Source: Parcubacteria group bacterium (GTDB lineage Bacteria; Patescibacteriota; Minisyncoccia; UBA6257; UBA11618). From it: 64,000 nucleotides of DNA. The notes under the pieces were generated by a model. That model saw nothing but the letters and a program-made list of their open reading frames with translations, was not told the origin of the DNA and did no database searches. The translations under genes were made by a program, and so were the position numbers. Below, in pieces: positions 3,074 to 55,857 of this stretch. The stretch lies in NCBI GenBank assembly GCA_943357895.1, contig CALRGO010000001.1:36724-100723 (forward strand). The letters are read 5' to 3'. Position 1 is the first letter of the stretch; each line of letters begins with the position of its first letter.

Positions 3074-3106
3074 TACTCACTACCCACTACAAACTAACCA
3101 CTAACT
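3074..3106. repeat. heptamer tandem array (CACTANC form) upstream of nusA
   Basis: ctactcactacccactacaaactaaccactaac. Member of the dispersed AGTGGNT/CACTANC family. Confidence 0.6.
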
Positions 3107-3115
3107 AAAAAGAAT

Positions 3116-4378
3116 ATGTTCGACCTGAAAGTAATCGCGCGCGCCATCGAGCAGCTCGCGGAAGAAAAGCACATAGAAACCGGCAAAGTTGTCGAGGCTG
3201 TTGAAGCCGCGCTCGCCGCCGCATACAAAAAAGAATACGAAAAGAGGGGAGAAGTCGTGCGCGCAAAATTTGATTTGAAAACCGGCAACGTCACCTTCGC
3301 TCAAATTAAAACGGTAGCCGACGAAACGACGGTAGACATGACCCCGCCCTCGGCGGATGAAATTGCGGCCGCTGCTGCACCCGTGGAACAGGACTATCGC
3401 ACCTCGCGGTACGAAGCGCCGGAGCCCGTACTCGAAGAGGGTAAGCTGCCGCGCTACAACCCTGACCGCTACATCCTCATTAACGAAGCGCAGAAGATTA
3501 AAGCGGACGTACTACTCGGCGAAGAGTTAGAATTCCCCCTCGAAACTAAAATAGATTTCGGCCGTATTGCGTCGCAAACCGCCAAGCAAAATATCTTACA
3601 AAAACTCCGCGAAGCAGAGCGCGACTCGATCATGTCCGAGTTTAAAAATAAGGAAGGTGAAATAGTGAACGGCGTCATACAGCGCTTTGAGCGGGGGACG
3701 ACGTACGTCGACATCGGCCGCGCGACGGGCATTATGTTCTACAACGAATCTATCCCCGGCGAGCACTACCGCATCGGCGACCGCATGAAATTTTACGTGA
3801 CGGCGATCCAGAACGACACGAAGGGTCCCGGTATAATTCTTTCACGCGCGCACCCGCGCCTTGTCATAAAACTCTTCGCGCTTGAGTCGCCTGAAATCGC
3901 CGACGGCTCGGTAGAAATCCGAGCAATTGCTCGCGAAGCCGGCAACCGCACGAAGATCGCCGTAGTATCCCACATGAAGGGCGTTGACCCCGTGGGCTGC
4001 TGCGTTGGCCAGCGTGGCACACGCGTAATGGCAGTATCGGGCGAGCTCGGCCAAGAGAAAATAGACATCATAGAATTTTCGGAAGACCCCGCGGACTTCA
4101 TCGCGCACGCCTTGTCACCCGCGAAGGTTGCTCGCGTGGAAATCCTACCGCGTCGCGAAGCCCGCGCCTTTATCCCTGACGACCAGCTTTCGCTCGCTAT
4201 CGGTAAGGGCGGCCAGAACGTGCGCTTGGCGCACCGGCTGACCGGCTGGAAGATAGATATCCGCGCCGAGTCCTCACCCGAAACTGCGGTATTAAAAGAC
4301 GAAGAAGCACCGCAGGCGGAAGGCGCAGAACCAGCAATCGAAACGCCTACCGAAACGAAAACGGAGTCGGAGTCGTAA
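3116..4378 (+). CDS. nusA: transcription termination/antitermination factor NusA
   Basis: 420 aa. N-terminal NusA domain, S1 and tandem KH regions (GQRGTRV, IGKGGQNVRLA). Confidence 0.9.
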   Translation: MFDLKVIARAIEQLAEEKHIETGKVVEAVEAALAAAYKKEYEKRGEVVRAKFDLKTGNVTFAQIKTVADETTVDMTPPSADEIAAAAAPVEQDYRTSRYEAPEPVLEEGKLPRYNPDRYILINEAQKIKADVLLGEELEFPLETKIDFGRIASQTAKQNILQKLREAERDSIMSEFKNKEGEIVNGVIQRFERGTTYVDIGRATGIMFYNESIPGEHYRIGDRMKFYVTAIQNDTKGPGIILSRAHPRLVIKLFALESPEIADGSVEIRAIAREAGNRTKIAVVSHMKGVDPVGCCVGQRGTRVMAVSGELGQEKIDIIEFSEDPADFIAHALSPAKVARVEILPRREARAFIPDDQLSLAIGKGGQNVRLAHRLTGWKIDIRAESSPETAVLKDEEAPQAEGAEPAIETPTETKTESES

Positions 4379-4381
4379 TCT

Positions 4382-4412
4382 ATTCACTACCCACTAACCA
4401 CTTTTCACTAAT
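4382..4412. repeat. heptamer tandem array downstream of nusA
   Basis: attcactacccactaaccacttttcactaat. Confidence 0.55.
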
Positions 4413-4418
4413 AAAAAT

Positions 4419-4931
4419 ATGGACATGATGAAATTAACCGCAGGGGATAACGCGCCGGAAGAAATAAACGTCTTCGTGGAGATTCCGCAGGGGTCATCCA
4501 TCAAGTACGAAGTCGATAAAGACTCGGGATTTTTATTCGTCGACCGCTTCCTCCACACCGCGATGAGCTACCCCTTTAACTACGGCTTCGTGCCACAGAC
4601 GCACGCTGACGACGGCGACGCCGTCGACGTACTTTTAATATCGTCGTTACCCGTGACCCCCGGCTCGGTCGTGCGCGCACGGCCCATCGGCATGCTCGAG
4701 ATGGAAGACGAGGCCGGCATGGACAATAAAATCCTCGCTGTTCCGGTCATAAAAACGGATGCGCACTATGCGGATGTAAACGATATCGCGGATGTAAGCG
4801 AACATACGAAAAATAAAATCAAGCATTTCTTTGAAACCTACAAAAACTTGGAAAAAGGAAAATGGGTCAAAGTAAAAAACTTCTTAGGTAAGGATGCCGC
4901 CATCGAGGAAATCAGGAAGGGGATGAATTAA
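4419..4931 (+). CDS. ppa: inorganic pyrophosphatase
   Basis: Family I PPase motifs ([17 protein letters not shown]). Confidence 0.9.
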
Positions 4932-9925: not shown

Positions 9926-9955
9926 AGTGGTTAGTGGATAGTGGTTAGTGGATAG
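9926..9955. repeat. heptamer tandem array (AGTGGTT/AGTGGAT x4) overlapping the 3' end of the ddl-like CDS
   Basis: gagtggttagtggatagtggttagtggatag. Encodes the C-terminal ...YPLTTIH of the minus-strand protein. Confidence 0.6.
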
Positions 9956-10587: not shown

Positions 10588-12240
10588 TCACATCCGCTCC
10601 GGCACCTCAATACCCAAAAGCCACAGGCCGTTCTTGATCACTTGGGCGGAGGCGACAACAAGCGCTAGGCGAAGGGCGCGAGCCTCGCCAACTTCCAGCA
10701 CCGGCACGGCGTCGTAAAACCGGCTGAACTCCTGCGCGAACTCGTTTAAGAATGTCGCTATGATATGCGGCGCATCGAGCGAATATGCCTGCCGTACCGC
10801 CTGCGGAAACTCCGCAATGCGCTTTAATAAACGCGCTTCGTGAGACGACGGAGTGATTAGTGGGTAGTGATTAGTGGGTAGTGACGCCGAAACGTCGCCC
10901 GCCTTTTCCAAAATAGCCTTGGCGCGCACGTATGCGTACTGGATGTAGGGCGCGCTATTACCTTGGATAGAGAGCGCCGCGTCCCACGAAAAGGCTATGT
11001 CGTGCTCACGGCCCATAGAAAGCATGTTGTATAAAATAGCGCCCACGCCCACTTCCTTAATACCCTTGGTTTTTACCACCGCCTCCTTTAGACCGTCTTC
11101 TAAAAAGACTATCCCGCCTTCACGCGTAGAAATTTTCTTGCCGTTAATCGTAACTACGCCGTAACTTACGTGCTTAAACTTTTCCTCCGGATAACCCATA
11201 AGCCCCAAGGTTTTAAAAATCTGCCGTAAATATAATTCCTGCTCGTGGCCAACCACATAAATTATTTTTTCCGCCTGCGGATATTCCTTAAGCCGCCAGC
11301 GGCCAACCGCGATGTCGCGCGCGCTGTAGAGCGACGCGCCATCTGACTTCACGAGCAAGAAAGAGGGGAGGCCAAACTTATCAAGATTGACTACTACCGG
11401 CCGGCCCTGCCCCGACGAAGCCATGGTTGTTAAGGGGCCCGCCCCGCGAAGCCCAGAGGGCGAAGTGGGGTCGCCGTATGCCGCCGCGCCCTTTACGAGC
11501 GCTTCGTCCACCGCTTCTTTTATAAAGGTCTCATAAAAACTCTCACCGTGCCATAAGTCAAAGTTAATGCCGAATAGGGCATAGACCCGCTCAAAATTCT
11601 TTACGCTTATATCGCGGAACTCCTGCCACAGGGCGCGTAGCTCCACATCACCCCCCTCGAGCTTGCGGAAAAGCTCCCGCGCCTCGTCTTCCAATTCTGG
11701 CGATGACTTTATCTCTTTCGTCATCCGCACGTATAAATCGAGCAAGGTGCGTATTGGGTCTTTTTTAAAGGCTTTCCTATCACCCCACTTTTGGAATGCA
11801 AGCATAATCTTCGCTAAAGACATGCCCCAGTCGCCAAAGTGGTTCGTAGTAATTACCGTATAGCCATTTGCCTTATAGATATTTGCGAGTGCGTGACCAA
11901 TAGCATTGTTGCGCGCATGGCCCATGTGCATAGGCTTCGCAATGTTGGGGGCGGAATATTCGAGCATGACGGTCTTACCCGCGCCCGATGCATTCCATCC
12001 GTACGACTCTTTCTTCGTCATGACCTCGTGGAGTACATGCTCCGTAAGCGCGTTTAAATTAAACGATATGTTTACGTACCGGCCGGTAACGACGACACTA
12101 CCGAATAACGGGTTATTCAACCCGCGAATTTTTTCCGCCACATCTTCCGGCTTTTCGCGGAAGCAGGGGATAGCCAAATCCGCCCCCACGCCCTCGGGTG
12201 GGATCTCTATCTTTGATGCGATCTTCTCTAAGCCGAACAT
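10588..12240 (-). CDS. argS: arginine--tRNA ligase
   Basis: 550 aa with class I HMGH motif (KPMHMGHARN), N-terminal Arg_tRNA_synt_N-like region and DALR-type C-terminus. Two in-frame repeat insertions: heptamer array at 10852-10884 and GC-rich element at 11434-11472. Confidence 0.9.
   Translation of the reverse strand: MFGLEKIASKIEIPPEGVGADLAIPCFREKPEDVAEKIRGLNNPLFGSVVVTGRYVNISFNLNALTEHVLHEVMTKKESYGWNASGAGKTVMLEYSAPNIAKPMHMGHARNNAIGHALANIYKANGYTVITTNHFGDWGMSLAKIMLAFQKWGDRKAFKKDPIRTLLDLYVRMTKEIKSSPELEDEARELFRKLEGGDVELRALWQEFRDISVKNFERVYALFGINFDLWHGESFYETFIKEAVDEALVKGAAAYGDPTSPSGLRGAGPLTTMASSGQGRPVVVNLDKFGLPSFLLVKSDGASLYSARDIAVGRWRLKEYPQAEKIIYVVGHEQELYLRQIFKTLGLMGYPEEKFKHVSYGVVTINGKKISTREGGIVFLEDGLKEAVVKTKGIKEVGVGAILYNMLSMGREHDIAFSWDAALSIQGNSAPYIQYAYVRAKAILEKAGDVSASLPTNHYPLITPSSHEARLLKRIAEFPQAVRQAYSLDAPHIIATFLNEFAQEFSRFYDAVPVLEVGEARALRLALVVASAQVIKNGLWLLGIEVPERM
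10852..10884. repeat. heptamer tandem array inside argS (encodes SLPTNHYPLITPS)
   Basis: agtgattagtgggtagtgattagtgggtagtgacg, which is in frame on the minus strand. Confidence 0.65.
11434..11472. repeat. GC-rich ~38-bp repeat element, copy 1, in-frame in argS (encodes DPTSPSGLRGAGP)
   Basis: ggggcccgccccgcgaagcccagagggcgaagtggggtc is the reverse complement of the element at 39597-39635. Confidence 0.7.
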
Positions 12241-12244: not shown

Positions 12245-12276
12245 AAGTGGATAGTGAGTAGTGGTTAGTGGATAGA
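12245..12276. repeat. heptamer tandem array in the argS / trmL-like spacer
   Basis: agtggatagtgagtagtggttagtggatagat. Confidence 0.6.
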
Positions 12277-26032: not shown

Positions 26033-27112
26033 ATGGATGAATTAAACCAAGCCTCGCAAAACAGCAGCCTGCCGCAGGTACCACCACCACAAACTAATAT
26101 CGTGCCGCCGCCGCCCACGACACCAGAAGTGCTCGTGCGCACGATGGAGAGCGATATACAATCCGTACGCGCAACCGGCGAACCGGTGGCGCAACCTGTG
26201 ACCCCACTTCGCCCTTCGGGCTTCGCGGGGCAAGCGCCCATCACCCCACAAATAACACCAGTCGCACCTGTAGCCGCGCCCGTACAATTCCCCACACAAA
26301 CGGCGCCAGCGCCCGCCCCAATGCCCGCAACCGAAACAAAATCCGGTAGACTCCTCCTGTGGTTTTTCATACTCACTCTTATCGTCGGTATCGGTTGGGC
26401 GACGTATAAATACGGCCTACCTGCGTACCGCGCGATGGTGCCAAGTAAACCAACAGCCGAAGCGCCTGCGCAGGGAGTAGCGCTAGAGCCGAGCGCAGCA
26501 GGACTCGCCGTACCGCCTGAACCAGCACCCGTAGCGCCCGCAATAACGCCGCTCGGCGCAACGCAAGATGCATTACCTAAGATAGAAACCGACGGTACGC
26601 TGCCCTCGATTACTGCGGCGCTCGTAGCTGAAGCCAAAAAGACAAAGTCAGCAAGCGGAACCATCCAGGAAGTCTCCCTACTTAATGCCGGCGCGCCGAT
26701 GAGTTTCGCTACCGTACTAGGGGTACTCTTACCGGAAGCGAAGACAAACGGCTTGGATGGTATTCTTACCGCCGCCTTCGACCCTATCTTTTCCGCATAC
26801 CTCTTTTACGACGACCGCGGCGCATGGCCCGGCTACATAGCCAAAATTAACCCCGCTTCCCAAATAGACGCCGCAACTCTCGCGAGCCGTTTGCAAGCTG
26901 TCGAGACAAGCTCATACAAAAACCTCTTCCTCGTAGATGCCGGCGCACCCACCACATTCCGCACCGGCCAAGCGCGCGATAAGTACATCGACCGCTTTGT
27001 ACCCTTAGCAACCGACGGTGCGCTTTTCAGCTACGGTATCTTCGGCGACTACGTGATCATTAATACCTCCAATAACGGATTAGTGAAGGCTCTGGATCTG
27101 TTAAAGCTGTAA
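26033..27112 (+). CDS. proline-rich single-pass membrane protein (hypothetical)
   Basis: 359 aa: Pro-rich N-terminus, one TM (LLLWFFILTLIVGIGW), and a C-terminal globular domain. Contains the in-frame GC-rich repeat at 26201-26238. Confidence 0.55.
   Translation: MDELNQASQNSSLPQVPPPQTNIVPPPPTTPEVLVRTMESDIQSVRATGEPVAQPVTPLRPSGFAGQAPITPQITPVAPVAAPVQFPTQTAPAPAPMPATETKSGRLLLWFFILTLIVGIGWATYKYGLPAYRAMVPSKPTAEAPAQGVALEPSAAGLAVPPEPAPVAPAITPLGATQDALPKIETDGTLPSITAALVAEAKKTKSASGTIQEVSLLNAGAPMSFATVLGVLLPEAKTNGLDGILTAAFDPIFSAYLFYDDRGAWPGYIAKINPASQIDAATLASRLQAVETSSYKNLFLVDAGAPTTFRTGQARDKYIDRFVPLATDGALFSYGIFGDYVIINTSNNGLVKALDLLKL
26201..26238. repeat. GC-rich repeat element, copy 2 (encodes TPLRPSGFAGQAP)
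   Basis: accccacttcgcccttcgggcttcgcggggcaagcgcc. Confidence 0.7.
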
Positions 27113-27116: not shown

Positions 27117-27228
27117 GAAGTGGATAGTGAGTAGTGGGTAGGGGCTAGAAACGACGACGTAAAAAACCGGCTTTCGCCGGTTTTTTAATCTACTCACTAC
27201 TCACTACTCACTAACCACTACTCACTCG
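27117..27228. repeat. inverted pair of heptamer arrays flanking an intrinsic terminator (27141-27178)
   Basis: gaagtggatagtgagtagtgggtagg ... aaaaaaccggctttcgccggtttttt ... ctactcactactcactactcactaaccactactcact. Confidence 0.65.
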
Positions 27229-27230: not shown

Positions 27231-28775
27231 CTACTTTTCTCGCAGGCGGTATGCAAAGGCTTCGGCGACATGAGCTTCGGCAACAGCGGGCACACCCTCG
27301 ATGTCAGCAATCGTGCGCGCCACTTTAAGTAGGCGGTAATAGCCGCGCGCGGAGAGCGTGGCGGACTTCCAGACCTTGCCGAAAAACGCCTGCGCTGACA
27401 CCGAAAGCACAACACTCTCCGAAACCTGCTTTGACGAAAGCGTACTATTTAGCACACCCTGCCGTACAACCTGCACTGCACGCACGCGTGTCACAACCTC
27501 ACGCATACTTTTTGTATCCGTCCCTCCTCCGTCGCCCTGCGGGCTATGGAGGACAGGCGCACGCGAAAGATCCGCTAATTCTACATGCGGTACCTGCACT
27601 TGCAGGTCGATACGGTCGAGTATCGGCCCCGAAACTTTCTTTTTGTACCGCAGAATCTCATGCGCGCCGCACGCACAATCGCGACGGCTGTCGCCATAAT
27701 AACCACACGGGCAGGGGTTCATAGCAGCAATAAGAATAAATCGAGCAGGGAGCGAGAGCGAACCATTCGACCGCGCGATAGTTACATGCCCACCCTCTAA
27801 GGGCTCGCGTAACGACTCCAAAACATCACGGCGGAATTCCGGCAATTCATCAAGAAACAAAACGCCTTTATGCGCGAGACTAATTTCACCGGGACGGGGG
27901 TATGAGCCACCACCAACCACTGCGGCGGCAGATGCCGTATGGTGCGGCGCGCGGAATGGCCGCTCCGTCACCGCGTGGCGTGCGTTAAGCGCACCAGAAG
28001 CCGAATAAATACGTGTCACTTCAATTACCTCGTCGCGCGTAAGCGCGGGCAAGAGGCCAGCGAACGCCTGTGCGAGCATCGTCTTACCACTCCCTGGTGA
28101 GCCGGACATAAGCACATGATGACCGCCGCACGCAGCGATAAGAAGTGCGCGCTTCGCCGCCGCCTGCCCACGCACGTCCGCAATATCGACTGGATTAGTA
28201 AACGGCTCAAACACAGCCTCATCTACGTGGGTGGGGGAGATCGGTGCGCGCCCTTCGAGATGCGCAATTAACTCCATAAGAGTGCGCACGGGAAATACGG
28301 CAACACTCCCGGCAAGCGCCGCCTCCGCGGCATTTACCGCAGGCACATAGAGCTCGGTAAAACCTTTTTCGCGCGCCATGCACGCAACATTCAAAACACC
28401 CATGACTGACCGCACACCGCCATCAAGCGCGAGCTCGCCCAAAAACATCCTACCCTTCGTTTCGAACTTTCTAATTTGCTCCGTCGCTACCAAATAACCC
28501 ACCGCAATAGCGAGATCATATTGCGACCCCGTCTTTTTAATATCCGCAGGCGCTAGGTTTACCACGATCTTGCGATTCTCTTGCGACGGTGGCTTTACAC
28601 CACTATTTTTCAAGGCAGCTGAAACGCGCTCACGCGCCTCACTTAACGCCTTATCTGCTAAACCAACTATAGAAAAAGAATGGAGGCCGACATGCAAGTC
28701 GACCTCCACCTCCACACACCGCGCGTCAATCCCCGAAAGCTCCCCCGAATATACACGGGAAAAGCGAGTATTCAT
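27231..28775 (-). CDS. comM: Mg-chelatase-like AAA+ competence protein ComM/YifB
   Basis: Lon-like N-terminal domain, Walker A GSPGSGKT, and a zinc-ribbon insert CPCGYYGDSRRDCAC. Confidence 0.85.
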   Translation of the reverse strand: MNTRFSRVYSGELSGIDARCVEVEVDLHVGLHSFSIVGLADKALSEARERVSAALKNSGVKPPSQENRKIVVNLAPADIKKTGSQYDLAIAVGYLVATEQIRKFETKGRMFLGELALDGGVRSVMGVLNVACMAREKGFTELYVPAVNAAEAALAGSVAVFPVRTLMELIAHLEGRAPISPTHVDEAVFEPFTNPVDIADVRGQAAAKRALLIAACGGHHVLMSGSPGSGKTMLAQAFAGLLPALTRDEVIEVTRIYSASGALNARHAVTERPFRAPHHTASAAAVVGGGSYPRPGEISLAHKGVLFLDELPEFRRDVLESLREPLEGGHVTIARSNGSLSLPARFILIAAMNPCPCGYYGDSRRDCACGAHEILRYKKKVSGPILDRIDLQVQVPHVELADLSRAPVLHSPQGDGGGTDTKSMREVVTRVRAVQVVRQGVLNSTLSSKQVSESVVLSVSAQAFFGKVWKSATLSARGYYRLLKVARTIADIEGVPAVAEAHVAEAFAYRLREK

Positions 28776-31708: not shown

Positions 31709-31724
31709 TATTGATTCAGGATTT

Positions 31725-32558
31725 ATGATTCAGGATTCAGGAATAACCGAAGTACCGAAAGCCAAGAAGTCCCTTGGGCAGCATTTTTTGATAAACAAGA
31801 AGGCGCTCTTAACAGTTGCCGAATCACTAAAGATTACCGAGGAAGACACCGTCATCGAAGTAGGTCCGGGTCACGGAGAACTTACGGACTTGCTTATTGC
31901 CTCGCCCGCTAAAAAAATTATCGTTATCGAAAAAGATCACGAGCTCGTGGAATTACTTAAAGAAAAATACCGCAGTGTCGGAACGACCCAGGGACTAGCT
32001 GACCGTCTTACCGTCACGGAAGGGGACGCACTCAAAGACCTCGCGCCCATCATCGCGGATCTTAAAACGCCCTACGTCCTCGCCGGCAACATCCCGTACT
32101 ACATCACGGGTTACTTGCTCCGCATAGTAGGCGACATGGAACGCAAGCCCCTCCGCACCGTTTTCACTATCCAAAAAGAAGTGGCTCTACGTATCTGCGC
32201 CGTAGCTCCCGACATGAACCGCCTCGCCGCCTGCGTGCAAATTTGGGGCACGCCGCACATCGCAATGAAATTAAAACCAACGGACTTCAACCCACCGCCC
32301 TCGATCGACTCCGCAATTATCGCAATCGAAACCAAAGCCGACACGCTTACCGGCACGAGTCTCGCAAACTACTACGAAACGGTGGGTATTCTCTTCCAAC
32401 AACCCCGCAAAACAATTTTAAATAACTTATCTAGCGGTTTTAACATCCCTAAAGAAAAAGCCCTCAGCCTCTTAACCCAAGTTGGTCTCACCGGCACTGA
32501 ACGCCCCGAAAATCTTTCTACCCTAACCATTCAAAAAATTGCCGAATCAACCCACTAA
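31725..32558 (+). CDS. rsmA: 16S rRNA (adenine1518/1519-N6)-dimethyltransferase RsmA/KsgA
   Basis: LGQHFL and VIEVGPGHGELT SAM-binding motifs. Confidence 0.85.
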   Translation: MIQDSGITEVPKAKKSLGQHFLINKKALLTVAESLKITEEDTVIEVGPGHGELTDLLIASPAKKIIVIEKDHELVELLKEKYRSVGTTQGLADRLTVTEGDALKDLAPIIADLKTPYVLAGNIPYYITGYLLRIVGDMERKPLRTVFTIQKEVALRICAVAPDMNRLAACVQIWGTPHIAMKLKPTDFNPPPSIDSAIIAIETKADTLTGTSLANYYETVGILFQQPRKTILNNLSSGFNIPKEKALSLLTQVGLTGTERPENLSTLTIQKIAESTH

Positions 32559-42501: not shown

Positions 42502-43328
42502 AACGAATCCTCGTACTATCATTACTATGCTATAGCCTCCTTATTGGGGGGGTGGTACAGGCTCAATCACAATATGACTTTGATTTCGTAGGCCCTAAAC
42601 AGGATCCTCTTGCACGGTACGGCGCAGTGGCAGGCGGCGACCGATGCGGACCGCAATTCAACGGCGACTATATTCTCTGTCAATCAACAGGCGGGATCAT
42701 AAGCCAAACGCAAACGAACTTCGCCGCATTCTTGCGCGAGATGTACAACCTCGCCTTTATTCTTGCTGGTACTGTCGCCTTTATACGTATCGTCTACGGC
42801 GGAATACTCTATAGCTGGAGCGGTGTAGTAGACCGCAAAAAAGAAGCAATTAACATATTCAAAAACGTCGCTTACGGTATAGCACTCCTTATGGGGTCGT
42901 ACGTCGTCTTAAATACCATCAACCCCGCACTCACTATTCTCGCGTTGCCAAACGTCACTATGGGGACGCCGCGAAGTTCGCGCAACGACGTGCCAACTCT
43001 ACCGCTTTCATCGTTAAACGAAATGCCCTCCGAGCTCGATCTTCTTGATACATCCATAGAATCTATACGGCAGGAAAACGTAAACCGAATTAACGCGCTC
43101 GATATATATAACAGTGGTACGAGAGAACAGCAGGCGACCATCGATCTTATCAATAATGAGATAAATCAAATCGGCGTTCCTGACACACCAGAACAAGACA
43201 GGCGTCTTGCTGAATTACAGGGAATGCTTATCCAAATAAATCAAAGCGAAGCGCAGATAGAAGCCGACGTTAAATCTGTTACAGATACGCCACCCAAGCA
43301 ATTCCAACGCACTAAGACCGCGCCATGA
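42498..43328 (+). CDS. signal-peptide protein with two hydrophobic helices (possible VirB2/TrbC pilin-like) and coiled C-terminus
   Basis: Signal MKRILVLSLLCYSLLIGGVVQA, and hydrophobic pair FILAGTVAFIRIVYGGILY / VAYGIALLMGSYVVL. Pilin assignment is speculative. Confidence 0.4.
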   Translation: MKRILVLSLLCYSLLIGGVVQAQSQYDFDFVGPKQDPLARYGAVAGGDRCGPQFNGDYILCQSTGGIISQTQTNFAAFLREMYNLAFILAGTVAFIRIVYGGILYSWSGVVDRKKEAINIFKNVAYGIALLMGSYVVLNTINPALTILALPNVTMGTPRSSRNDVPTLPLSSLNEMPSELDLLDTSIESIRQENVNRINALDIYNSGTREQQATIDLINNEINQIGVPDTPEQDRRLAELQGMLIQINQSEAQIEADVKSVTDTPPKQFQRTKTAP

Positions 43329-44188
43329 ACAAGGTACTCTTTATAGCAGTCACCATAGTACTCGTGGCGCTTTTCGGCACTGTTATTTATTACGGTATGC
43401 AGGCACTTGAACCACATACATATATCCCACCGGAAGAAGAAATTAATGAAATAACGAAAAGTGCGCCCGAAGCAACCGTTATATTACCGGTACTCCCCGG
43501 ACTCCCTACAAAAAAAATCCCTAGTGATGACGCTGTAACATTAAATTCATTTGAGCCCGTGAAAGTTCTATCTACAGAAGAACAGGTTACCTACCTTGCG
43601 ACGTCAACCATCCGCGAAGTGAACGCCCAAAAACTCTTTTTCGCCCCGTACGACAGCAATGCATTCCCGTACAGCAAGAATGATATTTTTATCATCGAAA
43701 AGCCGTCGAGTCTCGTACGCACGTCTTTATGGACGATAAACACTGCAACTAAAACAATGGTGCGTGTAGCCGGCCCGAGCTTCGGATTAATGGCGCGCTG
43801 GTCAAAGAACGGCCGGTATGTTTTTACCATGAGCACGGATACGGCAGGCGCATTATCGCTTTCGTTTATCGACATGAAACTAAAAACAACCACACCACTC
43901 CGCATAGCCACACTCCCATCTAAATGTTTCATCATGGACGCTAGCCCTATAATGTACTGCGGCGTTCCACAGGGCGCGCCCGAGGGAGCAGTATTACCAG
44001 ACGACTATTTGAAAGGAAAATTCATATCAAGGGATCGCATTGTAAAAATAGATTTTAAAACTCCCAAGGTGACGGAGCTGTGGAATGGCGAATCAGAATC
44101 CCTCGACATCCAAAACCCCGCCGTCATCGGCACAGAATTATTCTTCGTGAACAAAACCGACGACTCCGTCTGGAAGTTGGCGCTGTAA
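43325..44188 (+). CDS. N-terminally anchored beta-rich hypothetical protein (287 aa), last gene of operon
   Basis: TM MNKVLFIAVTIVLVALFGTVIYY followed by a beta-strand-rich domain. Confidence 0.45.
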   Translation: MNKVLFIAVTIVLVALFGTVIYYGMQALEPHTYIPPEEEINEITKSAPEATVILPVLPGLPTKKIPSDDAVTLNSFEPVKVLSTEEQVTYLATSTIREVNAQKLFFAPYDSNAFPYSKNDIFIIEKPSSLVRTSLWTINTATKTMVRVAGPSFGLMARWSKNGRYVFTMSTDTAGALSLSFIDMKLKTTTPLRIATLPSKCFIMDASPIMYCGVPQGAPEGAVLPDDYLKGKFISRDRIVKIDFKTPKVTELWNGESESLDIQNPAVIGTELFFVNKTDDSVWKLAL

Positions 44189-44191: not shown

Positions 44192-44221
44192 AGTGGGTAA
44201 TGATTAGTGGATAGTGAGTAG
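44192..44221. repeat. heptamer tandem array (AGTGGNT form)
   Basis: agtgggtaatgattagtggatagtgagtag. Confidence 0.6.
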
Positions 44222-44468: not shown

Positions 44469-44491
44469 TACCCACTAATCACTATCCACTC
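44468..44491. repeat. heptamer tandem array (CACTANC form)
   Basis: ctacccactaatcactatccactc. Confidence 0.55.
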
Positions 44492-44493: not shown

Positions 44494-44928
44494 CTAGAGA
44501 AGTGGTTTCACGATTACGCGCCTATCGCGCTTATCGCCGAAGCTTTCGGTCTTTACGTCTGGCCTTGTTGCGAGCTCGGTGTGCACTAAGCGGCGCTCGT
44601 AGGCGTTCATCGGGGGGAGCTGCACATCCGTCTTCGTTATTAAAACTTTACGCGCTGCGGCTTTGGCAATCTCCACAATCAGGCGCTCGCGCTCCTTGCG
44701 GTAATTATTAACATCCACATATACCATGCCGTGCACGCCCACCTTACGGCCGATAGTGCGCGCAAGAAAACCGAGGTCGGCAACAAGGCGGGGAATCCAC
44801 TCCTTAATCCACTCACCCTCTTCAATTAGTATTGAAAACCGCGCACCTTCCGTATCAAGCTCAACAACCGGACTTACAAATCCGGCTATGCCTAACAGCT
44901 CTTGAAGCGCTTTTTTAATGTGTTCCAT
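44494..44928 (-). CDS. jag: Jag/KhpB-like RNA-binding protein (KH + R3H)
   Basis: 144 aa, R3H-like C-terminus, adjacent to yidC. Confidence 0.75.
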   Translation of the reverse strand: MEHIKKALQELLGIAGFVSPVVELDTEGARFSILIEEGEWIKEWIPRLVADLGFLARTIGRKVGVHGMVYVDVNNYRKERERLIVEIAKAAARKVLITKTDVQLPPMNAYERRLVHTELATRPDVKTESFGDKRDRRVIVKPLL

Positions 44929-45571: not shown

Positions 45572-45854
45572 GCCATTGATGCGCTGTGTAAGCCGCAGCA
45601 GCCGGATGGGTTATTATGAGGTAATCGGCTACCGGCCACTCAGACTTTCTTGCCCGTATCGCGTTAAACGCCCTACGGCGTATTACGTTTCTTAGAACGG
45701 CGGTTTTACCAACCCGCCGACCCACCACCACCCCAAACCTACTATAGGTAAGAGGACTCATAAAAATTTTTACGGTAAACGCGGGTTTACGTACGGTACG
45801 TCCCGTGCGCGTAAGCGCCTCCTGCACTAGCAGGCGGTCTTTTTTAGCGAGCAT
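45528..45854 (-). CDS. rnpA: ribonuclease P protein component
   Basis: RNR-type motif (VGRRVGKTAVLRNVIRRR); rpmH-rnpA-yidC order. Confidence 0.85.
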   Translation of the reverse strand: MLAKKDRLLVQEALTRTGRTVRKPAFTVKIFMSPLTYSRFGVVVGRRVGKTAVLRNVIRRRAFNAIRARKSEWPVADYLIITHPAAAAYTAHQWHEELIPSSITRSAS

Positions 45855-45993
45855 GTACCGCGGTAACCGCGAGACTCTTCCTGCCCTTGCGGCGGCGCTT
45901 CGTTATGACGCGCGCACCCATAGAAGAGGACATTCTCTTCAAAAAACCGTGCGTCCTGCGGCGCTTTTTCTTGTGCGGATTATAGGTTTGACT
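45844..45993 (-). CDS. rpmH: 50S ribosomal protein L34
   Basis: MSQTYNPHKKKRRRTHGFLKRMSSSMGARVITKRRRKGRKSLAVTA. The internal Met of ORF 45844-46140 is the real start. Confidence 0.85.
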   Translation of the reverse strand, partial: SQTYNPHKKKRRRTHGFLKRMSSSMGARVITKRRRKGRKSLAVTAVHAR

Positions 45994-46080
45994 CATACCG
46001 CTATAATAACAGATTTTACGGCGCTTATCAACACGTTTTTTTATTCTGTCATTATTGACAGGTAACGGCCCAACCCTACA

Positions 46081-47466: not shown

Positions 47467-47671
47467 CCAGTGGATAACATCCGTATAACATGTTGCCAAA
47501 GCGCCACACACCTTACATGATTACCAGAGCACCTGAAAGTTATCCCCTTAGAAACGCCGTAACTATCCACAGGAAGACGCTGTCAAAAAAGGGCTTTCTA
47601 AAGGGGAAAAGAGAGTTATCCACCTATCCGCTATACCTACTATTACTACTAACTATATATAGAAAGAATAT
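47467..47671. promoter_or_regulatory. oriC: at least four DnaA boxes plus AT-rich unwinding element between dnaA and dnaN
   Basis: TGGATAACA (47471), GTTATCCCC (~47539), CTATCCACA (~47564), GTTATCCACC (~47614); AT-rich ctactattactactaactatatatagaaagaatat. Confidence 0.7.
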
Positions 47672-51553: not shown

Positions 51554-52044
51554 GAACTTCTTAATGCTTGGTGGATGCCCGCCGTAGCGATGGCAACGGC
51601 GAGGGCGTCCGTTGCATCGTCTAAGATGCGGAGCGGTGGGACTTTTAATATCATCGCAACCATACGCGCGACAGCTTTTTTATCTGCGCCACCATAATTA
51701 GTCGTCGCAACTTTTACTTGTTGGGGCGTGAATTCGTAAACAGGAGCAGCGCCGCTTGCGAGGTGAAGTAGGAGTCCGCGCGCCTGCGCGACTTCGATAC
51801 CCGTCTTTACGTTCTTGGAGAAGAATAGCTTTTCGATACCGATAGCATCGGGCTTGGATTCCGCAATAAGTTTTTTGAATTCGGTTGCGAGCGCGTTCAA
51901 TTTTTCCGCCGCATCTCCTTTCGGGATTTCGATGACCCCCGTTTTAATAAGGGAGAGAATCGATCCCTTTTTTTCTATCAAGCCGAAACCGATGCGCGAA
52001 CTACCGGGGTCGATGCCGAGGATACGGAGCTCGACTGCAGTCAT
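51550..52044 (-). CDS. ruvC: Holliday junction resolvase RuvC
   Basis: ILGIDPGS N-terminus; RNase H-like fold catalytic Asp/Glu. Confidence 0.9.
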   Translation of the reverse strand: MTAVELRILGIDPGSSRIGFGLIEKKGSILSLIKTGVIEIPKGDAAEKLNALATEFKKLIAESKPDAIGIEKLFFSKNVKTGIEVAQARGLLLHLASGAAPVYEFTPQQVKVATTNYGGADKKAVARMVAMILKVPPLRILDDATDALAVAIATAGIHQALRSS

Positions 52045-52565
52045 TAGGCTTTAGGCGCTAGGTTGGTAAAAACAGATTGCACATCGTCGCGGTCATCGAG
52101 AAGGTCTTCCAGTTTTTCCATTACTACGCGGTCTTCATCACTTCCCTCGAGAGGAAACTTCGCTTCTGTTCCTTCGAACGCCCAGCGTACACTGCCTATT
52201 TCGCCGAGCTTGCCACCGTTCTTTTCGAGGAGGTGGCGCACTTCGTTAACCGTGCGGGTAGTGCTGTCAGTGATTGTATTAATAAGGATTGCGATGCCGT
52301 TCGGACCGTATGCTTCGAGTGTCATTTCTTCTAGTGCGTCGGCATCCTGTGTTTTCTGTATTGCACGTTCGATATTTTCGTTAGGTACGGCGTTCGCCTT
52401 CGCGTCGTCCATAAGGCTCCGCAGGCGGGGATTAAAGCCAGGGTTCGGTTCGCTCCGCGCCGCTATCGTAATAGCCTTTAAAATCTTCGAGAAAACAATA
52501 CTCCGCTTTTTGTCGGTGGCGCCCTTTTGGTGCTTTATCTGGGACCACTTGTTATGTCCGGACAT
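52044..52565 (-). CDS. yebC: YebC/PmpR-family transcriptional regulator (short form)
   Basis: MSGHNKWSQIKHQKG...; 173 aa versus a typical ~240. Confidence 0.8.
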   Translation of the reverse strand: MSGHNKWSQIKHQKGATDKKRSIVFSKILKAITIAARSEPNPGFNPRLRSLMDDAKANAVPNENIERAIQKTQDADALEEMTLEAYGPNGIAILINTITDSTTRTVNEVRHLLEKNGGKLGEIGSVRWAFEGTEAKFPLEGSDEDRVVMEKLEDLLDDRDDVQSVFTNLAPKA

Positions 52566-52593
52566 ATATACGGAGGGTAGAGGATTTAGACTT

Positions 52594-52767
52594 TAGAGTC
52601 TATCCCGAAAATAGCTTTTGAAAAATATCTGCGCCCCTTCCGGTTATTTCCGACTGCGAACCACGATTTTCTTCTCGGAATACATCGGTATTCCTTGTCG
52701 AAATATCGCGTCTCTCGCTCGGAAATCCCTTGGAATTGGCTGCAGCCTATTTTCGGGATAGACTCTA
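52594..52767. repeat. 174-bp segment bounded by 21/22-bp inverted repeats (TAGAGTCTATCCCGAAAATAGC / GCTATTTTCGGGATAGACTCTA), MITE-like, in the yebC / pilB-like divergent region
   Basis: Terminal inverted repeats seen directly; no ORF inside. Confidence 0.5.
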
Positions 52768-52806
52768 GGCGCTAGGCTTTAGGAAATGCTACCGTAATGC
52801 ATATAT

Positions 52807-54210: not shown

Positions 54211-54220
54211 TGAAAAATAA

Positions 54221-54380
54221 TGATCTGCGGGCGTTGTCTCGTTGAGCCGAGAACTATAGAAATCTTTTTCACGAGGGAAAAAGGTTAGAACGATTTCGAG
54301 GAGAGATCCAGCCGGAGCCAGACCATCCGTATACTAAAAATTGTTCTTTCCGAACTTGCGTCCGGGTCGCCCGCAGATCA
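54221..54380. repeat. 160-bp segment bounded by 13-bp inverted repeats (TGATCTGCGGGCG / CGCCCGCAGATCA), upstream of ruvB
   Basis: Inverted repeat seen directly; interior could fold as an RNA. Confidence 0.4.
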
Positions 54381-54425
54381 CTAACCTCCACTAACAGGCA
54401 TCAGTATAGCACAGTCATTTTCAAT

Positions 54426-55430
54426 TTGTCAAGCACTACCGTGGATAACCAAAAAGAGCATCTCACCGTCGATTCAGCCTTACGCCCCTCGGGATGGGGC
54501 GATTATGTCGGCCAAGATAAGATCAAGGAAAACTTGCGCGTTATTTTAGCGGCTGCAAAAGCCCGCAACGAAGCGTGCGATCATCTGCTTTTTTACGGTC
54601 AAGCGGGCTTAGGAAAGACTACTTTGGCGCACTTGGTGACCAACGAACTCGGGTGCGGGTTAAAGGTTACCTCCGGCCCTGCACTCGAAAAGATGGGGGA
54701 CTTGGCGGCAGTGCTCTCCAACCTTGAAGAGCGCGACGTGTTATTTATAGACGAGGCGCACCGTATTAATAAAAACATCGAGGAGGTGCTCTATCCTGCT
54801 ATGGAGAGCCGCAAGCTCAATTTGATAATCGGCAAGGGGCCGGGCGCGCGCACGGTGTCCTTAGACCTTCCGGCGTTTACGGTAATTGCGGCGACGACGC
54901 GCGTGCATTTGATATCCGGTCCGCTTCGGTCGCGGTTCGGCGCTTCGTTTAAGCTCGACTATTACGATAATCCGGCAATCGAGCAGATCGTGCGCCGGTC
55001 GGCAGGTATTTTGAATATGAATTTAGATGATGCGGCTATTGCGCGCGTTGCCCTTGCTTCACGCTTTACTCCCCGCGCCGCAAACCGCTTATTAAAGCGC
55101 GTGCGCGATTATGCCGAGGTGCATAATGTAACGACCGTCAGCGATGATGTGGTGAAAAAGACGTTCGATATGCTCGATATCGATCCCTTAGGTTTAGAAT
55201 TGCTCGACCGGCGGTACATGGAGCTTATTATTAAAAAATTCAACGGCGGTCCGGTTGGTATTAATTCCGTGGCGGCCGCAATGAACGACAACGCGGAAAA
55301 TATCGAGGAGGTAGTCGAGCCGTTCCTTATCATGCTCGGGTTCTTGCACCGCACATCTGCCGGCCGCGTGGTAACACCCGAGGGATATGCACATCTCGCT
55401 ATGCCTGTGCCGCAAAGCCGCCTTATATAA
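54426..55430 (+). CDS. ruvB: Holliday junction branch migration ATPase RuvB
   Basis: TTG start; Walker A GQAGLGKTTLA, sensor motifs and winged-helix C-terminus. Confidence 0.9.
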   Translation: MSSTTVDNQKEHLTVDSALRPSGWGDYVGQDKIKENLRVILAAAKARNEACDHLLFYGQAGLGKTTLAHLVTNELGCGLKVTSGPALEKMGDLAAVLSNLEERDVLFIDEAHRINKNIEEVLYPAMESRKLNLIIGKGPGARTVSLDLPAFTVIAATTRVHLISGPLRSRFGASFKLDYYDNPAIEQIVRRSAGILNMNLDDAAIARVALASRFTPRAANRLLKRVRDYAEVHNVTTVSDDVVKKTFDMLDIDPLGLELLDRRYMELIIKKFNGGPVGINSVAAAMNDNAENIEEVVEPFLIMLGFLHRTSAGRVVTPEGYAHLAMPVPQSRLI

Positions 55431-55431
55431 G

Positions 55432-55857
55432 ATGACTATAGAAGAAACGAAAAACTATGCAGAACAATTAGCAGCGTCCGTAGGGGCATATCGGCGCATA
55501 TTCGCGCTTGTGGGGGATTTGGGCGCGGGCAAAACAACGTTCTCTGTATTTTTTCTGCGCGCCTTAGGCGTTACGGAGCCGGTGACGAGCCCAACCTTCG
55601 TTATTATGAAACACTACTCACTACCCACTACTCACTACCCACTTTCGTCGGCGTACCATATGGATTGCTATCGCCTTAAAAATACCGAAGAGCTCGCGCC
55701 TTTGGGTCTTACGGAAATCCTTGCGGACAAAAAAAATATTGTCCTTATCGAGTGGGCAGACCGCATCGCGGATGCGCTTCCGGCAGATACCGTGTGGATT
55801 GATTTCGCACATGCAGACGAAACTAACCGGCATATCATCTCGCGCACCGAAAAATAA
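55432..55857 (+). CDS. tsaE: tRNA threonylcarbamoyladenosine biosynthesis protein TsaE
   Basis: P-loop GDLGAGKTTF, SPTF and HxDxYRL motifs. Contains an in-frame heptamer array (HYSLPTTHYPLSS) at 55603-55632. Confidence 0.8.
   Translation: MTIEETKNYAEQLAASVGAYRRIFALVGDLGAGKTTFSVFFLRALGVTEPVTSPTFVIMKHYSLPTTHYPLSSAYHMDCYRLKNTEELAPLGLTEILADKKNIVLIEWADRIADALPADTVWIDFAHADETNRHIISRTEK
55603..55632. repeat. heptamer tandem array inside tsaE
   Basis: cactactcactacccactactcactaccca. Confidence 0.65.

Follow-up and report, generated by a model that had tools for sequence, protein, structure and literature searches.

The 64-kb stretch of DNA analyzed here (the window), from the small genome of an uncultured, Paceibacteria-like CPR bacterium, carries ten tandem arrays of a single dispersed heptanucleotide family, AGTGRNT, distributed among housekeeping genes such as nusA, ppa, argS, and tsaE (Table 1). 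The first-pass annotation had picked out these ten loci, and they proved real and strongly non-random: a three-unit AGTGRNT pattern with at most one mismatch gave 22 matches compared to 0.00 in 100 shuffles, and a two-unit pattern gave 33 matches versus 1.65 expected. Exact positions needed small corrections (e.g. 3075–3102, 55609–55643), the reported four to six units per array became three to five, and the list had missed three arrays of two other families (GATTCAG at 31713–31742; TAGGCNN at 52045–52065 and 52759–52787), for a total of 13 heptamer arrays in 64 kb. An unbiased lag scan recovered seven regions with a period of 7 and zero to two for any other period in the 4–12 range, making 7 the sole enriched short period in the window. 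Among 42 AGTGRNT units, positions 1–4 and 7 are conserved in 40–42, position 5 is G or A in 40, and position 6 is free, with C almost absent. The typical block is ~35 nt long, has an AGA end, and carries ACGA on either side. Such tandem blocks occur about once per 5–6 kb, and the contig carries two further AGTG arrays just beyond the window, one of which lies in frame within ileS. About 10% of genes have an array, and they have no functional theme in common.

Table 1. Positions and gene context of the heptanucleotide arrays and the associated terminator hairpin.
Feature	Position	Strand	Context
AGTGRNT array, 4 units (AGTGGTT AGTTTGT AGTGGGT AGTGAGT on - strand)	3075..3102	-	nusA leader, 13 nt upstream of nusA ATG (3116); G-free strand on mRNA
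AGTGRNT array, 4 units	4382..4409	-	Fills spacer from nusA stop (4378) to ppa ATG (4419); sense = G-free strand
AGTGRNT array, 4 units, perfect 14-nt doublet	9926..9953	+	3' end of Ddl-like ORF (- strand), coding its final YPLTTIH and stop; 6 nt from ATG (9919) of next - strand ORF
AGTGRNT array, 5 units, perfect 14-nt period	10852..10886	+	In frame inside argS (- strand)
AGTGRNT array, 4 units	12246..12273	+	Between SpoU-family methyltransferase stop (12287) and argS ATG (12240); ACGA on both flanks
AGTGRNT array, 4 units	27119..27146	+	Begins 6 nt past stop of ORF 26033..27112; sense = G-rich strand; left arm of inverted pair; AACGACGA on both flanks
Bidirectional intrinsic-terminator hairpin (AAAAAACCGGCTTTCGCCGGTTTTTT)	27160..27183	.	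Between two inverted arrays
AGTGRNT array, 5 units	27192..27226	-	Begins 4 nt past stop of yifB/comM (27231..28775, - strand); right arm of inverted pair; G-rich strand = sense for yifB/comM
GATTCAG array, 4.3 units (second heptamer family)	31713..31742	+	Begins 4 nt past UvrD-like helicase stop; includes candidate ksgA/rsmA ATG
AGTGRNT array, 4 units	44192..44219	+	Begins 3 nt past stop of ORF 43325..44188; sense = G-rich strand; followed by AGAAATGACGACG, then terminator-like hairpin
AGTGRNT array, 3 units	44470..44490	-	Begins 3 nt past stop of R3H (jag-like) gene 44494..44928 (- strand); adjoins terminator hairpin
TAGGCNN array, 3 units (third heptamer family)	52045..52065	+	yebC-ruvC junction; - strand codes last yebC residues and TAA stop, overlapping ruvC start (TAATG)
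TAGGCNN array, ~4 units	52759..52787	+	Divergent yebC/pilB intergenic region; 5' side broken by ~170-nt insertion with 21-nt perfect inverted ends
AGTGRNT array, 5 units, perfect 14-nt period	55609..55643	-	In frame inside tsaE (+ strand)

The initial descriptions of arrays at gene boundaries and of nusA as flanked at either end (3075 and 4382) were both borne out. Orientation follows a rule in which the 5' end of the G-rich strand adjoins the ORF boundary. The sense strand is the G-free one in all four start-proximal intergenic arrays and the G-rich one in all four terminal arrays (Fisher p = 0.029; p = 0.003 with the three coding arrays added), a result that upholds the claim of fixed orientation relative to genes. 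In transcripts, the strand that lies ahead of start codons, and the one that is translated, is the nearly G-free one; terminal stop codons are followed by the G-rich strand. This rule also holds in 98 AGTGNNT arrays from ~100 species: stops of long ORFs are found no more than 15 nt from the 5' end of the G-strand in 33–37 cases versus 7–10 for the mirror image, and opposite-strand ORF starts number 25–28 versus 8–11.

The G-rich strand contains stop codons in three frames in 8/10 arrays (all three coding ones included) and in two frames in the other 2/10, along with three to five GUG/AUG triplets per array; the C-rich strand has none of these triplets. In the ANYCACT strand G is almost absent, there is no AUG, GUG, or UUG, stops are few, and no structure is formed. 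In the coding arrays every frame of the AGTG strand is closed by stops, which leaves the CACT strand as the sole readable one; the orientation of the coding copies, previously taken as a hint at function, is thus forced.

The annotated in-frame translation was verified in argS (SLPTNHYPLITPS), in tsaE (HYSLPTTHYPLSS), and at the C-terminus of the Ddl-like protein. The argS array encodes SLPTNHYPLIT in a variable linker preceding the anticodon-binding domain, and the tsaE array encodes HYSLPTTHYPL in place of an 11-residue loop of relatives. The recurring HYPL(T/I)T peptide is the arithmetic outcome of 3 x 7 nt, since three units make 21 nt and any frame yields a cyclic permutation of one heptapeptide. 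In a relative (L499), YPLIT in the ArgS loop is coded by TAT CCC CTT ATT ACC, and the array here reads TAC CCA CTA ATC ACT.

Inverted pairs had been described as bracketing terminators at two places. By computed folding, the 27119/27192 pair forms a ~30-bp stem around the bidirectional terminator hairpin (-58.7 kcal/mol, z = -8.6), in agreement with that description. The 44192/44470 pair does not bracket a single terminator; ~250 nt with two terminator-like hairpins and a structured repeated element lie between its arms. More generally, the proposed association with terminators stands within the window (4/10 AGTGRNT arrays) and is weak across ~100 other genomes (5/36 versus 6% of controls, p = 0.075).

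All covered arrays are identical in four near-identical strains (99.5–99.97% identity), with two arrays covered in all four assemblies and three in two. Since these assemblies are independent, the arrays are not assembly artefacts, and their identity indicates that they are not hypervariable switches. Fast slippage was therefore not seen; copy number varies only between loci and between species.

Between species the arrays turn over, and insertions are lineage-specific. Across 33 kb, the related genome L007/L133 contains zero arrays (versus 13 in 64 kb here), and arrays are absent from its orthologous sites. These data indicate that the arrays are dispensable at those sites in that genome, and the earlier suggestion of function rather than junk was not sustained. 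The jag/g43325 intergenic region measures 305 nt here versus 8 nt in L133, and the SpoU-argS spacer measures 46 nt versus 7 nt in five relatives. At the end of the Ddl-like gene the site is empty in L499, L500, L501, and L007, is occupied by the AGTGRNT family in L006, and is occupied by the TAGGC family in L005. In L005 the GATTCAG family occupies the argS loop, and in L132, L134, and L141 it occurs at the yebC-ruvC junction. This junction carries an array in at least seven relatives (L129–L132, L134, L135, L141), to 64% RuvC identity, with the family changing among three different heptamers. Around nusA, an orthologous leader array of exactly four units is found in L006, and degenerate remnants of two to three units occupy the nusA-ppa spacer of L005 and L006. 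More than 120 species, spread over many phyla, carry AGTGNNT arrays.

The perfect 14-nt double-unit duplications of three arrays (9926, 10852, and 55609..55643) indicate that local duplication does occur. Across 11 arrays, ACGA flanks are present on the left in five, on the right in nine, and on both sides in five, versus 0.18, 0.83, and 0.016 expected, counts that were matched in 0/20,000 trials. Three loci (12241, 27114, and 44187) have flanks and unit order in common, with up to 89% identity over 44 nt, including 14–16 nt of non-repeat flank. The common flank (~16 nt) and the ACGA enrichment point to copying between sites and support the notion of dispersed spread between loci. ACGA may belong to the element itself instead of marking a duplicated target. 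Neither a transposase nor a target-site duplication rule nor any other means of copying was identified, and the AGTGNNT arrays of other genomes displayed no flank consensus and no convincing duplication.

We propose, with about an even chance of being right, that the arrays are a non-autonomous, non-coding heptanucleotide satellite of the STRR/long-SSR class that is filtered by selection for orientation and site. Blocks would occasionally be copied to new chromosomal sites, where resident blocks would lengthen or be renewed as one or two units duplicate in tandem, as the doublets illustrate. Selection would let them survive where extra sequence is tolerated, such as stop-to-next-start gaps, stop-to-terminator spacers, and variable surface loops of proteins, and they would persist in the harmless orientation alone. 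The ANYCACT strand would be accepted before starts and inside ORFs because it is G-poor, start-free, low in stops, and unstructured, whereas the AGTGRNT strand would be accepted only after the last stop of a transcription unit because of its stops in nearly all frames and its three to five GUG/AUG triplets. Flipping five arrays in silico added 6–10 kcal/mol of structure in 5/5 and three to four false GUGs in 4/5. Start regions after arrays are less folded (-3.9 versus -7.7 kcal/mol, p = 0.03, from six genes only). Such a filter accounts for the exclusion of the G-rich strand before starts, and less well for the rarity of the G-free strand after terminal stops. Three consequences are likely side-effects rather than purposes: a leader that is unstructured and poor in G, in a genome whose genes mostly lack a Shine-Dalgarno sequence (an SD-like motif precedes only ~13/63 genes), back-up stops covering most frames before terminators, and terminator stems ~30 bp longer where two copies are inverted. 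Persistence of the yebC-ruvC array and the four units of the nusA leader in L006 would also fit selection for array presence.

The same observations bear on a reading of the arrays as cis-acting RNA elements, each unit being bound by a single-strand-binding protein (for example a cold-shock domain, ribosomal protein S1, or a KH domain like those of NusA/KhpB). G-free arrays before starts would attract ribosomes or give them access in an SD-poor genome, or would link the translation of neighboring cistrons; G-rich arrays past stops, together with inverted pairs, would define 3' ends or make double-stranded processing sites. One cold-shock domain spans 6–7 nt, and five of the seven unit positions are nearly invariant with two free. 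The strict orientation relative to transcription, the location of arrays 5–13 nt from start codons without SD, the less structured start regions, the yebC-ruvC array that persists despite family turnover, and the equal nusA leader unit number in L006 are also in keeping with such elements. Heptamers including aaCCACu have served as cold-shock-domain ligands (PMC12767080), and an equivalent role in translation was put forward as a proposal for TAACTGA repeats (PMC4679880). However, ~10% of genes, without a functional theme, have an array, a relative lacks arrays at equivalent junctions, and at least three unrelated units occupy equivalent sites, so that several binding proteins or very loose specificity would be needed. 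With no candidate protein tied to the arrays and a role hard to picture within coding loops, we consider this possibility rather unlikely. In-situ replication slippage at each locus, the unit reflecting a bias of mutation or of the polymerase toward certain heptamers and no copying between loci taking place, is improbable. Among long SSRs, heptamers are the most abundant in many bacteria, and slippage across a ~7-nt polymerase footprint has been proposed (Mrazek 2007, as relayed in PMC4679880 and PMC4692102). The perfect doublets, the breadth of species with AGTGNNT arrays, a permuted control pattern that saturates the scan too, and the L499 ArgS loop, which could have seeded the array codons, all agree with slippage. 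It should, however, amplify local 7-mers, yet the ten loci have one unit with an AGA end and ACGA flanks, three of them have 14–16 nt of non-repeat flank in common, and the empty sites of relatives, such as CGGTATA, have nothing AGTG-like that could serve as a seed.

A role at the DNA level, as uptake signal sequences, sites for nucleoid or segregation proteins, or non-B DNA formers, seems very unlikely. The G-strand 5' end adjoins the ORF in either ORF direction, as a DNA-level rule would have it, the window contains pilB, pilin, and comM genes, and inverted pairs make terminators as they do for neisserial and Haemophilus uptake sequences. Xanthomonas and Nostoc units form G-quadruplexes in vitro (PMC4692102), but GGG runs are so rare in AGTGRNT units that a three-tetrad quadruplex is impossible in most arrays. 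Moreover, tandem blocks at ~1 per 6 kb differ from uptake-type single 9–12-mers at ~1 per kb, no bias exists relative to the replication origin near 46–48 kb, and a close relative has no arrays. Contingency loci, hypermutable repeats that toggle genes through unit number, are barely credible. Their classic architecture is that of short tandem repeats placed at the starts of genes and within ORFs, and copy number differs between loci, but the identity of the covered arrays in strains at 99.5–99.97% identity and the essential or housekeeping nature of the genes hit (nusA, ppa, argS, tsaE, ileS, ruvC), in which a 7-nt change would be a lethal frameshift, already largely refute this candidate; heterogeneous units also suppress slippage.

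Placed beside known systems, AGTGRNT arrays add a new case to a class of repeats already described in cyanobacteria, Xanthomonas, and sulfur bacteria. Phase-variation SSRs are similar in being short tandem repeats near gene starts and within ORFs, but here unit number is constant among close strains, the genes concerned are housekeeping ones, and units are heterogeneous. Rickettsia palindromic elements and REP, BIME, and MITE sequences are small non-autonomous repeats that spread in compact genomes and land at gene ends, the Rickettsia elements also in frame inside conserved protein genes. Inverted copies make hairpins near terminators in both cases; in contrast, a single AGTGRNT array is a direct tandem repeat of ~35 nt, much shorter, without an internal palindrome and with no terminal inverted repeats or associated transposase seen. 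Cyanobacterial STRR sequences reportedly comprise several tandem heptanucleotide families per genome, mostly non-coding. For these and for long SSRs (Mazel et al. 1990, cited in PMC4692102; Mrazek et al. 2007, via PMC4679880), the likeness extends to several dispersed families, heptamer dominance, and copies inside functional genes; units and phylum differ, and those papers are not known to report the family turnover at orthologous sites found here. TAACTGA repeats of marine Beggiatoaceae, some cyanobacteria, and Bacteroidetes (MacGregor 2015, PMC4679880) likewise form two to six tandem heptamers, mostly a few nt upstream of SD-less start codons and, in Beggiatoaceae, also inside ORFs, with a patchy distribution across phyla. 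One orientation stops every frame and therefore ends ORFs, and the other is translated at protein termini. In Beggiatoaceae, however, the stop-rich orientation faces the start codon, whereas here the stop-poor, G-free one does; several families coexist here and swap at one junction, and 3' ends beside terminators account for half of the intergenic arrays.

The GGGAATC heptamers of Xanthomonas and GGGGA(C/T)T heptamers of Nostoc/Anabaena (Rehm et al. 2015, PMC4692102) are dispersed tandem arrays with a modal four heterogeneous units, fixed and free positions, inverted pairs, and an equal orientation rule: the G-rich strand is non-coding just upstream of ORFs and coding just downstream, stop codon overlap included. 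Related species keep sites while unit number and sequence vary, ~90% of arrays are intergenic, and no tie exists to surface genes or mobile elements. AGTGRNT arrays differ in unit sequence, mostly lack G-quadruplex potential, and reside in a tiny CPR genome at ~1 per 5–6 kb versus ~1 per 27 kb there; several are translated within essential enzymes, and the AGA and ACGA flanks are specific to this genome.

A scan of the 64-kb window for AGTGNNT-like runs returned exactly ten arrays. All of the arrays reported in the first-pass annotation were thus present, but with three to five units each instead of four to six, and its inventory of repeat loci was incomplete, having overlooked the further heptamer families GATTCAG and TAGGCNN (see table). 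A three-unit pattern with one mismatch allowed gave 22 matches, compared with 0 in shuffled sequences, and a two-unit pattern gave 33, compared with 1.65. In a lag scan independent of any motif, 7 was the sole enriched short period (7 regions versus 0–2 at lags 4–12). Units are arranged head to tail, with at least three and a mode of about four per array, and are heterogeneous, combining fixed and free positions. Across the 42 units compared, positions 1–4 and 7 hardly vary, position 5 is a purine, and position 6 varies freely except that C is almost absent; because of this composition, the complementary strand is essentially G-free. Three arrays are perfect 14-nt doublets.

Positions of heptamer arrays and other features (window coordinates unless a locus is named)
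Feature	Position	Remark
AGTGRNT array (start)	3075
AGTGRNT array (start)	4382
AGTGRNT array (start)	9926
AGTGRNT array (start)	10852
AGTGRNT array (start)	12246
AGTGRNT array (start)	27119
AGTGRNT array (start)	27192
AGTGRNT array (start)	44192
AGTGRNT array (start)	44470
AGTGRNT array (start)	55609
AGTG-type array outside window	20515-20545	locus L498
AGTG-type array outside window	1681-1708	locus L001
GATTCAG array	31713-31742
TAGGCNN array	52045-52065	yebC-ruvC
TAGGCNN array	52759-52787
GC-rich ~40-nt element	11434-11481	argS
GC-rich ~40-nt element	26199-26238
GC-rich ~40-nt element	38282-38321
GC-rich ~40-nt element	39596-39635
GC-rich ~40-nt element	27522-27561	weak copy
Hairpin-ended element	44296-44417
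Hairpin-ended element	25147-25298	inverted
21-nt inverted repeat, arms	52593-52614, 52747-52769	perfect
184-nt inverted repeat, arms	25782-25965, 58590-58773	93% complementary
nusA leader	2964-3040
Origin neighbourhood	44494-48784
dnaA	46081-47466
dnaN	47672-48784
YebC/TACO1 homologue	52044-52565	minus strand

The AGTGRNT family occupies ten unlinked loci in 64 kb and, beyond the window, another two on the same contig. One of the outside arrays lies in frame within ileS (GGLPTTHSPLSTS); the other begins 4 nt past a stop codon in the G-sense and has ACGA on either side. The window is part of a 253-kb metagenomic contig. Its gene content (nusA, ppa, tig, clpP, tyrS, argS, eno, T4SS-type pilins) and its nearest ArgS homologues, which carry the names Candidatus Pacebacteria or Patescibacteria, assign it to a CPR bacterium. 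A cyanobacterial source was rejected on this CPR-like gene content and on the occurrence of only one HIP1 site. Rfam returned only six tRNAs at the gathering threshold, and 44150-44520 gave nothing at E <= 1; the arrays therefore correspond to no described RNA family.

Seven of the window arrays are fully intergenic, one overlaps the end of an ORF, and two lie inside ORFs. As claimed in the first pass, the arrays sit at gene boundaries: the 5' end of the G-rich strand is 3–13 nt from an ORF boundary in 8/8 non-internal arrays. Four occupy operon-internal spacers, 5–13 nt before the ATG of nusA, ppa, a 145-aa ORF and argS, and another four begin 3–6 nt past the stop codon of the last gene ahead of a terminator. 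The claim of in-frame copies also stands, since two arrays are read in frame inside argS and tsaE and the array ahead of the 145-aa ORF doubles as the 3' end of the Ddl-like ORF, specifying its last residues and stop codon. Inverted pairs had been described as bracketing terminators. This is true of the 27119/27192 pair, which surrounds a bidirectional terminator whose stem is lengthened by ~30 bp, whereas the 44192/44470 pair surrounds ~250 nt containing two terminator-like hairpins and a structured element with a second copy at 25.2 kb. In ~100 other genomes the association with intrinsic terminators is weak: they were found near arrays in 5/36 cases, compared with 6.2% of control stops (p = 0.075).

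Array orientation follows gene context. The mRNA strand is G-free at all start-proximal and coding arrays and G-rich at all terminal ones (4/4 versus 4/4; p = 0.029 for intergenic arrays only, p = 0.003 with the coding arrays). Because the G-rich strand contains stops in all three frames in 8/10 arrays, including the coding copies, the orientation of the coding copies is forced; the fixed coding orientation noted earlier was observed but loses its value as a hint of function. Similarly, the common HYPL(T/I)T peptide arises because three 7-nt units make 21 nt, giving the same result in any frame. We saw no strand pattern of arrays, and hence no replication-strand bias, around the origin region (dnaA, dnaN and a GC-skew switch in the window). 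The origin neighbourhood contains rnpA, yidC and a jag-like R3H gene (minus strand), followed by dnaA and dnaN, and the GC skew changes sign near 48 kb.

An SD-like motif lies within 20 nt of the start in only ~13 of the 63 predicted genes. Start regions after arrays fold less than others (-3.9 versus -7.7 kcal/mol; p = 0.03, n = 6), and flipping five arrays in silico added 6–10 kcal/mol of structure in 5/5 and 3–4 upstream GUGs in 4/5. Throughout the window, many cistrons overlap or lie less than 12 nt apart. The nusA leader has a near-consensus promoter (TTGACA-17-TATACT) and, 3' of it, a hairpin and T-tract (TGGCTGCCCGTGGGGTAGCTA TTTTTATTTT) whose core, GGCCACCCCACGGGCGGCC, is kept in the related loci L005–L007; this hairpin, which precedes the heptamer array, may act as an attenuator.

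Near-identical strains (99.5–99.97%) cover two arrays in four assemblies and three in two, and all covered copies are base-for-base identical. The arrays are real, and hypervariability is absent. Slippage had been suggested earlier, with unit-number polymorphism in close strains as the check; the five covered arrays were identical, without sign of fast slippage.

We then compared orthologous loci of genomes with 80–89% ArgS identity. Five relatives have a SpoU-argS spacer of 7 nt, compared with 46 nt in the window, and in L005 a TAGGC-type array lies there. At the end of the Ddl-like gene, four relatives are empty, L006 has the AGTGRNT family and L005 the TAGGC family. The nusA leader array is common to L006, with the same four units including an odd AGTTTGT/AGTTTAT unit, and degenerate remnants occupy the nusA-ppa spacer in L005 and L006. 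Repeats in the ArgS loop are GATTCAG and its inverted form in L005 and the homologous proteins P0009 and P0010, and of AAACTAN type in P0008, P0011 and P0015. The YPLIT peptide of this loop is encoded as TAT CCC CTT ATT ACC in the relative L499 and as TAC CCA CTA ATC ACT in the window array, so that the peptide is identical and all five codons differ at the third base only. Given this shared peptide with third-base differences only, the loop is probably an old array-derived segment, lately re-homogenised in the window by 14-nt duplication.

Searching metagenomes around ruvC gave further comparisons. At the yebC-ruvC junction, the array supplies the yebC stop and the ruvC start; its family is CTAGCGC/CTAAAGC in the window and L129–L131, ATCCTGA/ATCATGA in L132, L134 and L141, and CCCCTAA in L135, and only a vestige is found in L133. 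The TsaE loop in relatives is an unrelated 11-residue sequence. Between the stop codons of the jag-like gene and the facing ORF (43325..44188) lie 8 nt in L133 and 305 nt in the window. Sites shared with relatives, with varying unit number and sequence, are the nusA leader, nusA-ppa, the Ddl-like end and yebC-ruvC. Array density ranges between 13 arrays in the 64 kb of the window and none in 33 kb of the genome represented by L007 and L133. The YebC/TACO1 homologue itself has only 173 aa and matches no more than positions 1–55 of the 160-position Pfam model for the second and third domains; an array encodes its last residues in the window genome and in relatives.

Within the window genome, the arrays share a larger consensus, ACGA-(AGTGRNT)n-AGA-N0-7-ACGA. 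Left-hand ACGA occurs in 5/11 cases (0.18 expected), right-hand ACGA in 9/11 (0.83 expected) and both together in 5/11 (0.016 expected). Loci 12241, 27114 and 44187 have common flanks and unit order, with up to 89% identity over 44 nt, and at three loci exactly 35 nt separate the two ACGAs. The SpoU-argS spacer without this block and one ACGA would be 7 nt long, as it is in the five empty-site relatives. The ACGA flanks, the common flanks and unit order, and this 7-nt remainder suggest, short of proof, that whole blocks were copied, perhaps with a 4-nt target duplication. At 27119, the array stands between the two copies of an 8-nt direct repeat. A longest-common-substring test for target duplication reached no significance in the window and was only marginal in other genomes, where it is confounded by base composition. 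Single arrays, being direct repeats, lack terminal inverted repeats and internal palindromes; a hairpin takes two separate arrays in inverted orientation. We noticed no transposase among the genes listed for ~85 kb of the genome.

Searching one genome per species for at least 3.5 exact AGTGNNT units gave at least 120 matches, compared with ~4 expected by chance. Among the matches listed were Planctomycetota, Acidobacteriota, Bacteroidota, Chloroflexota, Cyanobacteria, Firmicutes, Proteobacteria, Verrucomicrobiota and two other CPR lineages; in these listed matches position 5 is a purine, mixed units are common, the mode is 4–5 units, and inverted pairs are frequent. The orientation rule also holds for 98 listed arrays: no more than 15 nt separate the G-strand 5' end from the stop of a long ORF in 33–37 versus 7–10 in the mirror-image arrangement, and an opposite-strand ORF starts at that end in 25–28 versus 8–11. 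We saw no ACGA-type flanks in other genomes and no conserved flank or larger mobile element there, only a partial next unit, AG. The listed loci are also rich in period-7 arrays built from many other units (264 versus 0–21 at periods 5, 6, 8 and 9). In a viral collection, the AGTGNNT query and the permuted control GATGNNT each gave at least 120 matches; a second control, GTTAGNN, partly overlaps the AGTGNNT family itself. Because other period-7 units are abundant and the permuted control, like the query, gives at least 120 viral matches, we conclude that heptamer arrays in general are widespread, and we make no claim of a preference for AGTGNNT among heptamers.

Dispersed heptanucleotide arrays have been known in cyanobacteria since 1990. 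Later reports describe them in Xanthomonas (PMC4692102) and Beggiatoaceae (PMC4679880), with neither function nor mechanism of spread identified in either. GGGAATC in Xanthomonas and GGGGA(C/T)T in Nostoc form tandem 7-mers with a mode of four heterogeneous units, ~90% of them intergenic; the G-strand is antisense before ORFs and sense after them, inverted pairs occur, sites are kept between species, and the function is stated to be unknown (PMC4692102). This architecture and orientation rule are shared by the AGTGRNT arrays of the window. The TAACTGA repeats of Beggiatoaceae lie just upstream of SD-less start codons, occasionally within ORFs, and a putative translational role via S1, Csp or CsrA has been proposed (PMC4679880). 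Our literature search found no relevant paper on the unit sequences or on CPR heptamer repeats. The repeat class is already known, and its occurrence in this phylum is new.

The arrays would be best explained as a non-autonomous heptanucleotide satellite of the STRR / long-SSR class, whose blocks would occasionally be copied and then expanded in place by unit duplication, and which would be retained only at permissive sites, in an orientation compatible with translation. Unstructured leaders, back-up stops and longer terminator stems would be incidental-looking local effects. Of the readings considered, this combination of copying, local expansion and selective retention is the best supported, and we give it about an even chance of being correct. 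The main rival, possible but somewhat unlikely, is a cis-regulatory RNA signal recognised by a single-strand-binding protein: the yebC-ruvC junction keeps an array despite turnover of the family, but an array-free relative exists and the unit sequences are many and different. A further reading, which we consider unlikely, treats the arrays as a modular, interchangeable RNA signal in bacteria with few SD motifs, this CPR lineage among them. Each unit of 7 nt would offer one register to a single-strand binder (cold-shock domain, S1 or KH type). At cistron junctions, G-free arrays would drive initiation or re-initiation independently of an SD; where arrays are G-rich or form inverted pairs, they would mark mRNA 3' ends or sites of processing. 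Unit families would co-evolve with the binder, or the binder would tolerate them, which would account for the retention of an array at yebC-ruvC while its family changes.

Purely local slippage at each site fits the data worse than either the satellite or the cis-regulatory reading and is quite unlikely, and a DNA-level role, also a worse fit than both, is very unlikely. Contingency loci fit worse than both as well and are exceedingly improbable: copies are identical wherever close strains cover the arrays, and the hosts are nusA, ppa, argS, tsaE, ruvC and ileS, not surface or variable genes. Several known classes of element were also compared with the arrays. G-quadruplexes are precluded in most arrays by GGAT, GAGT and GGTT units that interrupt the G runs. 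HutP/TRAP-type sites consist of NAG triplets at fixed spacing; here a UAG-N4 periodicity is found on the G-rich strand only, and the sense strand of leaders is G-free, without UAG. DNA uptake signals are one 9–12-mer at ~1 per kb, mostly single, whereas the arrays are tandem blocks at ~1 per 6 kb, with several heptamer families side by side and a close relative without any array.

The window presents a known architecture and orientation rule at high density in a minimal CPR genome. Together with related contigs, it goes beyond the earlier reports (PMC4679880, PMC4692102) in offering clean empty and filled orthologous sites, the replacement of one heptamer family by another at one gene junction, and arrays that give stops, starts and loop peptides of the essential enzymes ArgRS, IleRS, TsaE and RuvC. 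Because empty and filled sites, family replacement and array-supplied codons are all seen here, compact SD-poor genomes with many sequenced relatives look like a good system for distinguishing selfish filler from a translation or 3'-end signal, and these comparative features could help decide the nature of heptamer repeats. For annotation, the arrays account for odd lineage-specific inserts and altered termini in conserved proteins.

Other repeats accompany the arrays in the window. A GC-rich ~40-nt element (GACCCCACTTCGCCCTCTGGGCTTCGAGGGGCGGGCCCC) inside protein-coding ORFs forms a second repeat family; its argS copy encodes an extra SPSGLRGAGPL that is absent from relatives, and the element looks like an in-frame insertion of a small palindromic element, by analogy with Rickettsia palindromic elements. 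A hairpin-ended element of ~125–170 nt (AAGCCGGCG...CGCCGGCTT) is present in two copies and could be a MITE or a small-RNA gene. The 44.3-kb copy, which sits between two terminator-like hairpins and two inverted heptamer arrays, matches nothing in Rfam and folds at -84.5 kcal/mol (z = -6.5); the 305-nt region between the jag-like gene and its neighbour is missing altogether from L133 and L136. Inside the yebC/pilB TAGGCNN array, a perfect 21-nt inverted repeat (TAGAGTCTATCCCGAAAATAG) surrounds ~130 nt; this insert is absent from L130 and L133 and is a MITE-like insertion into a heptamer array. Finally, the arms of a 184-nt inverted repeat lie 32.6 kb apart.
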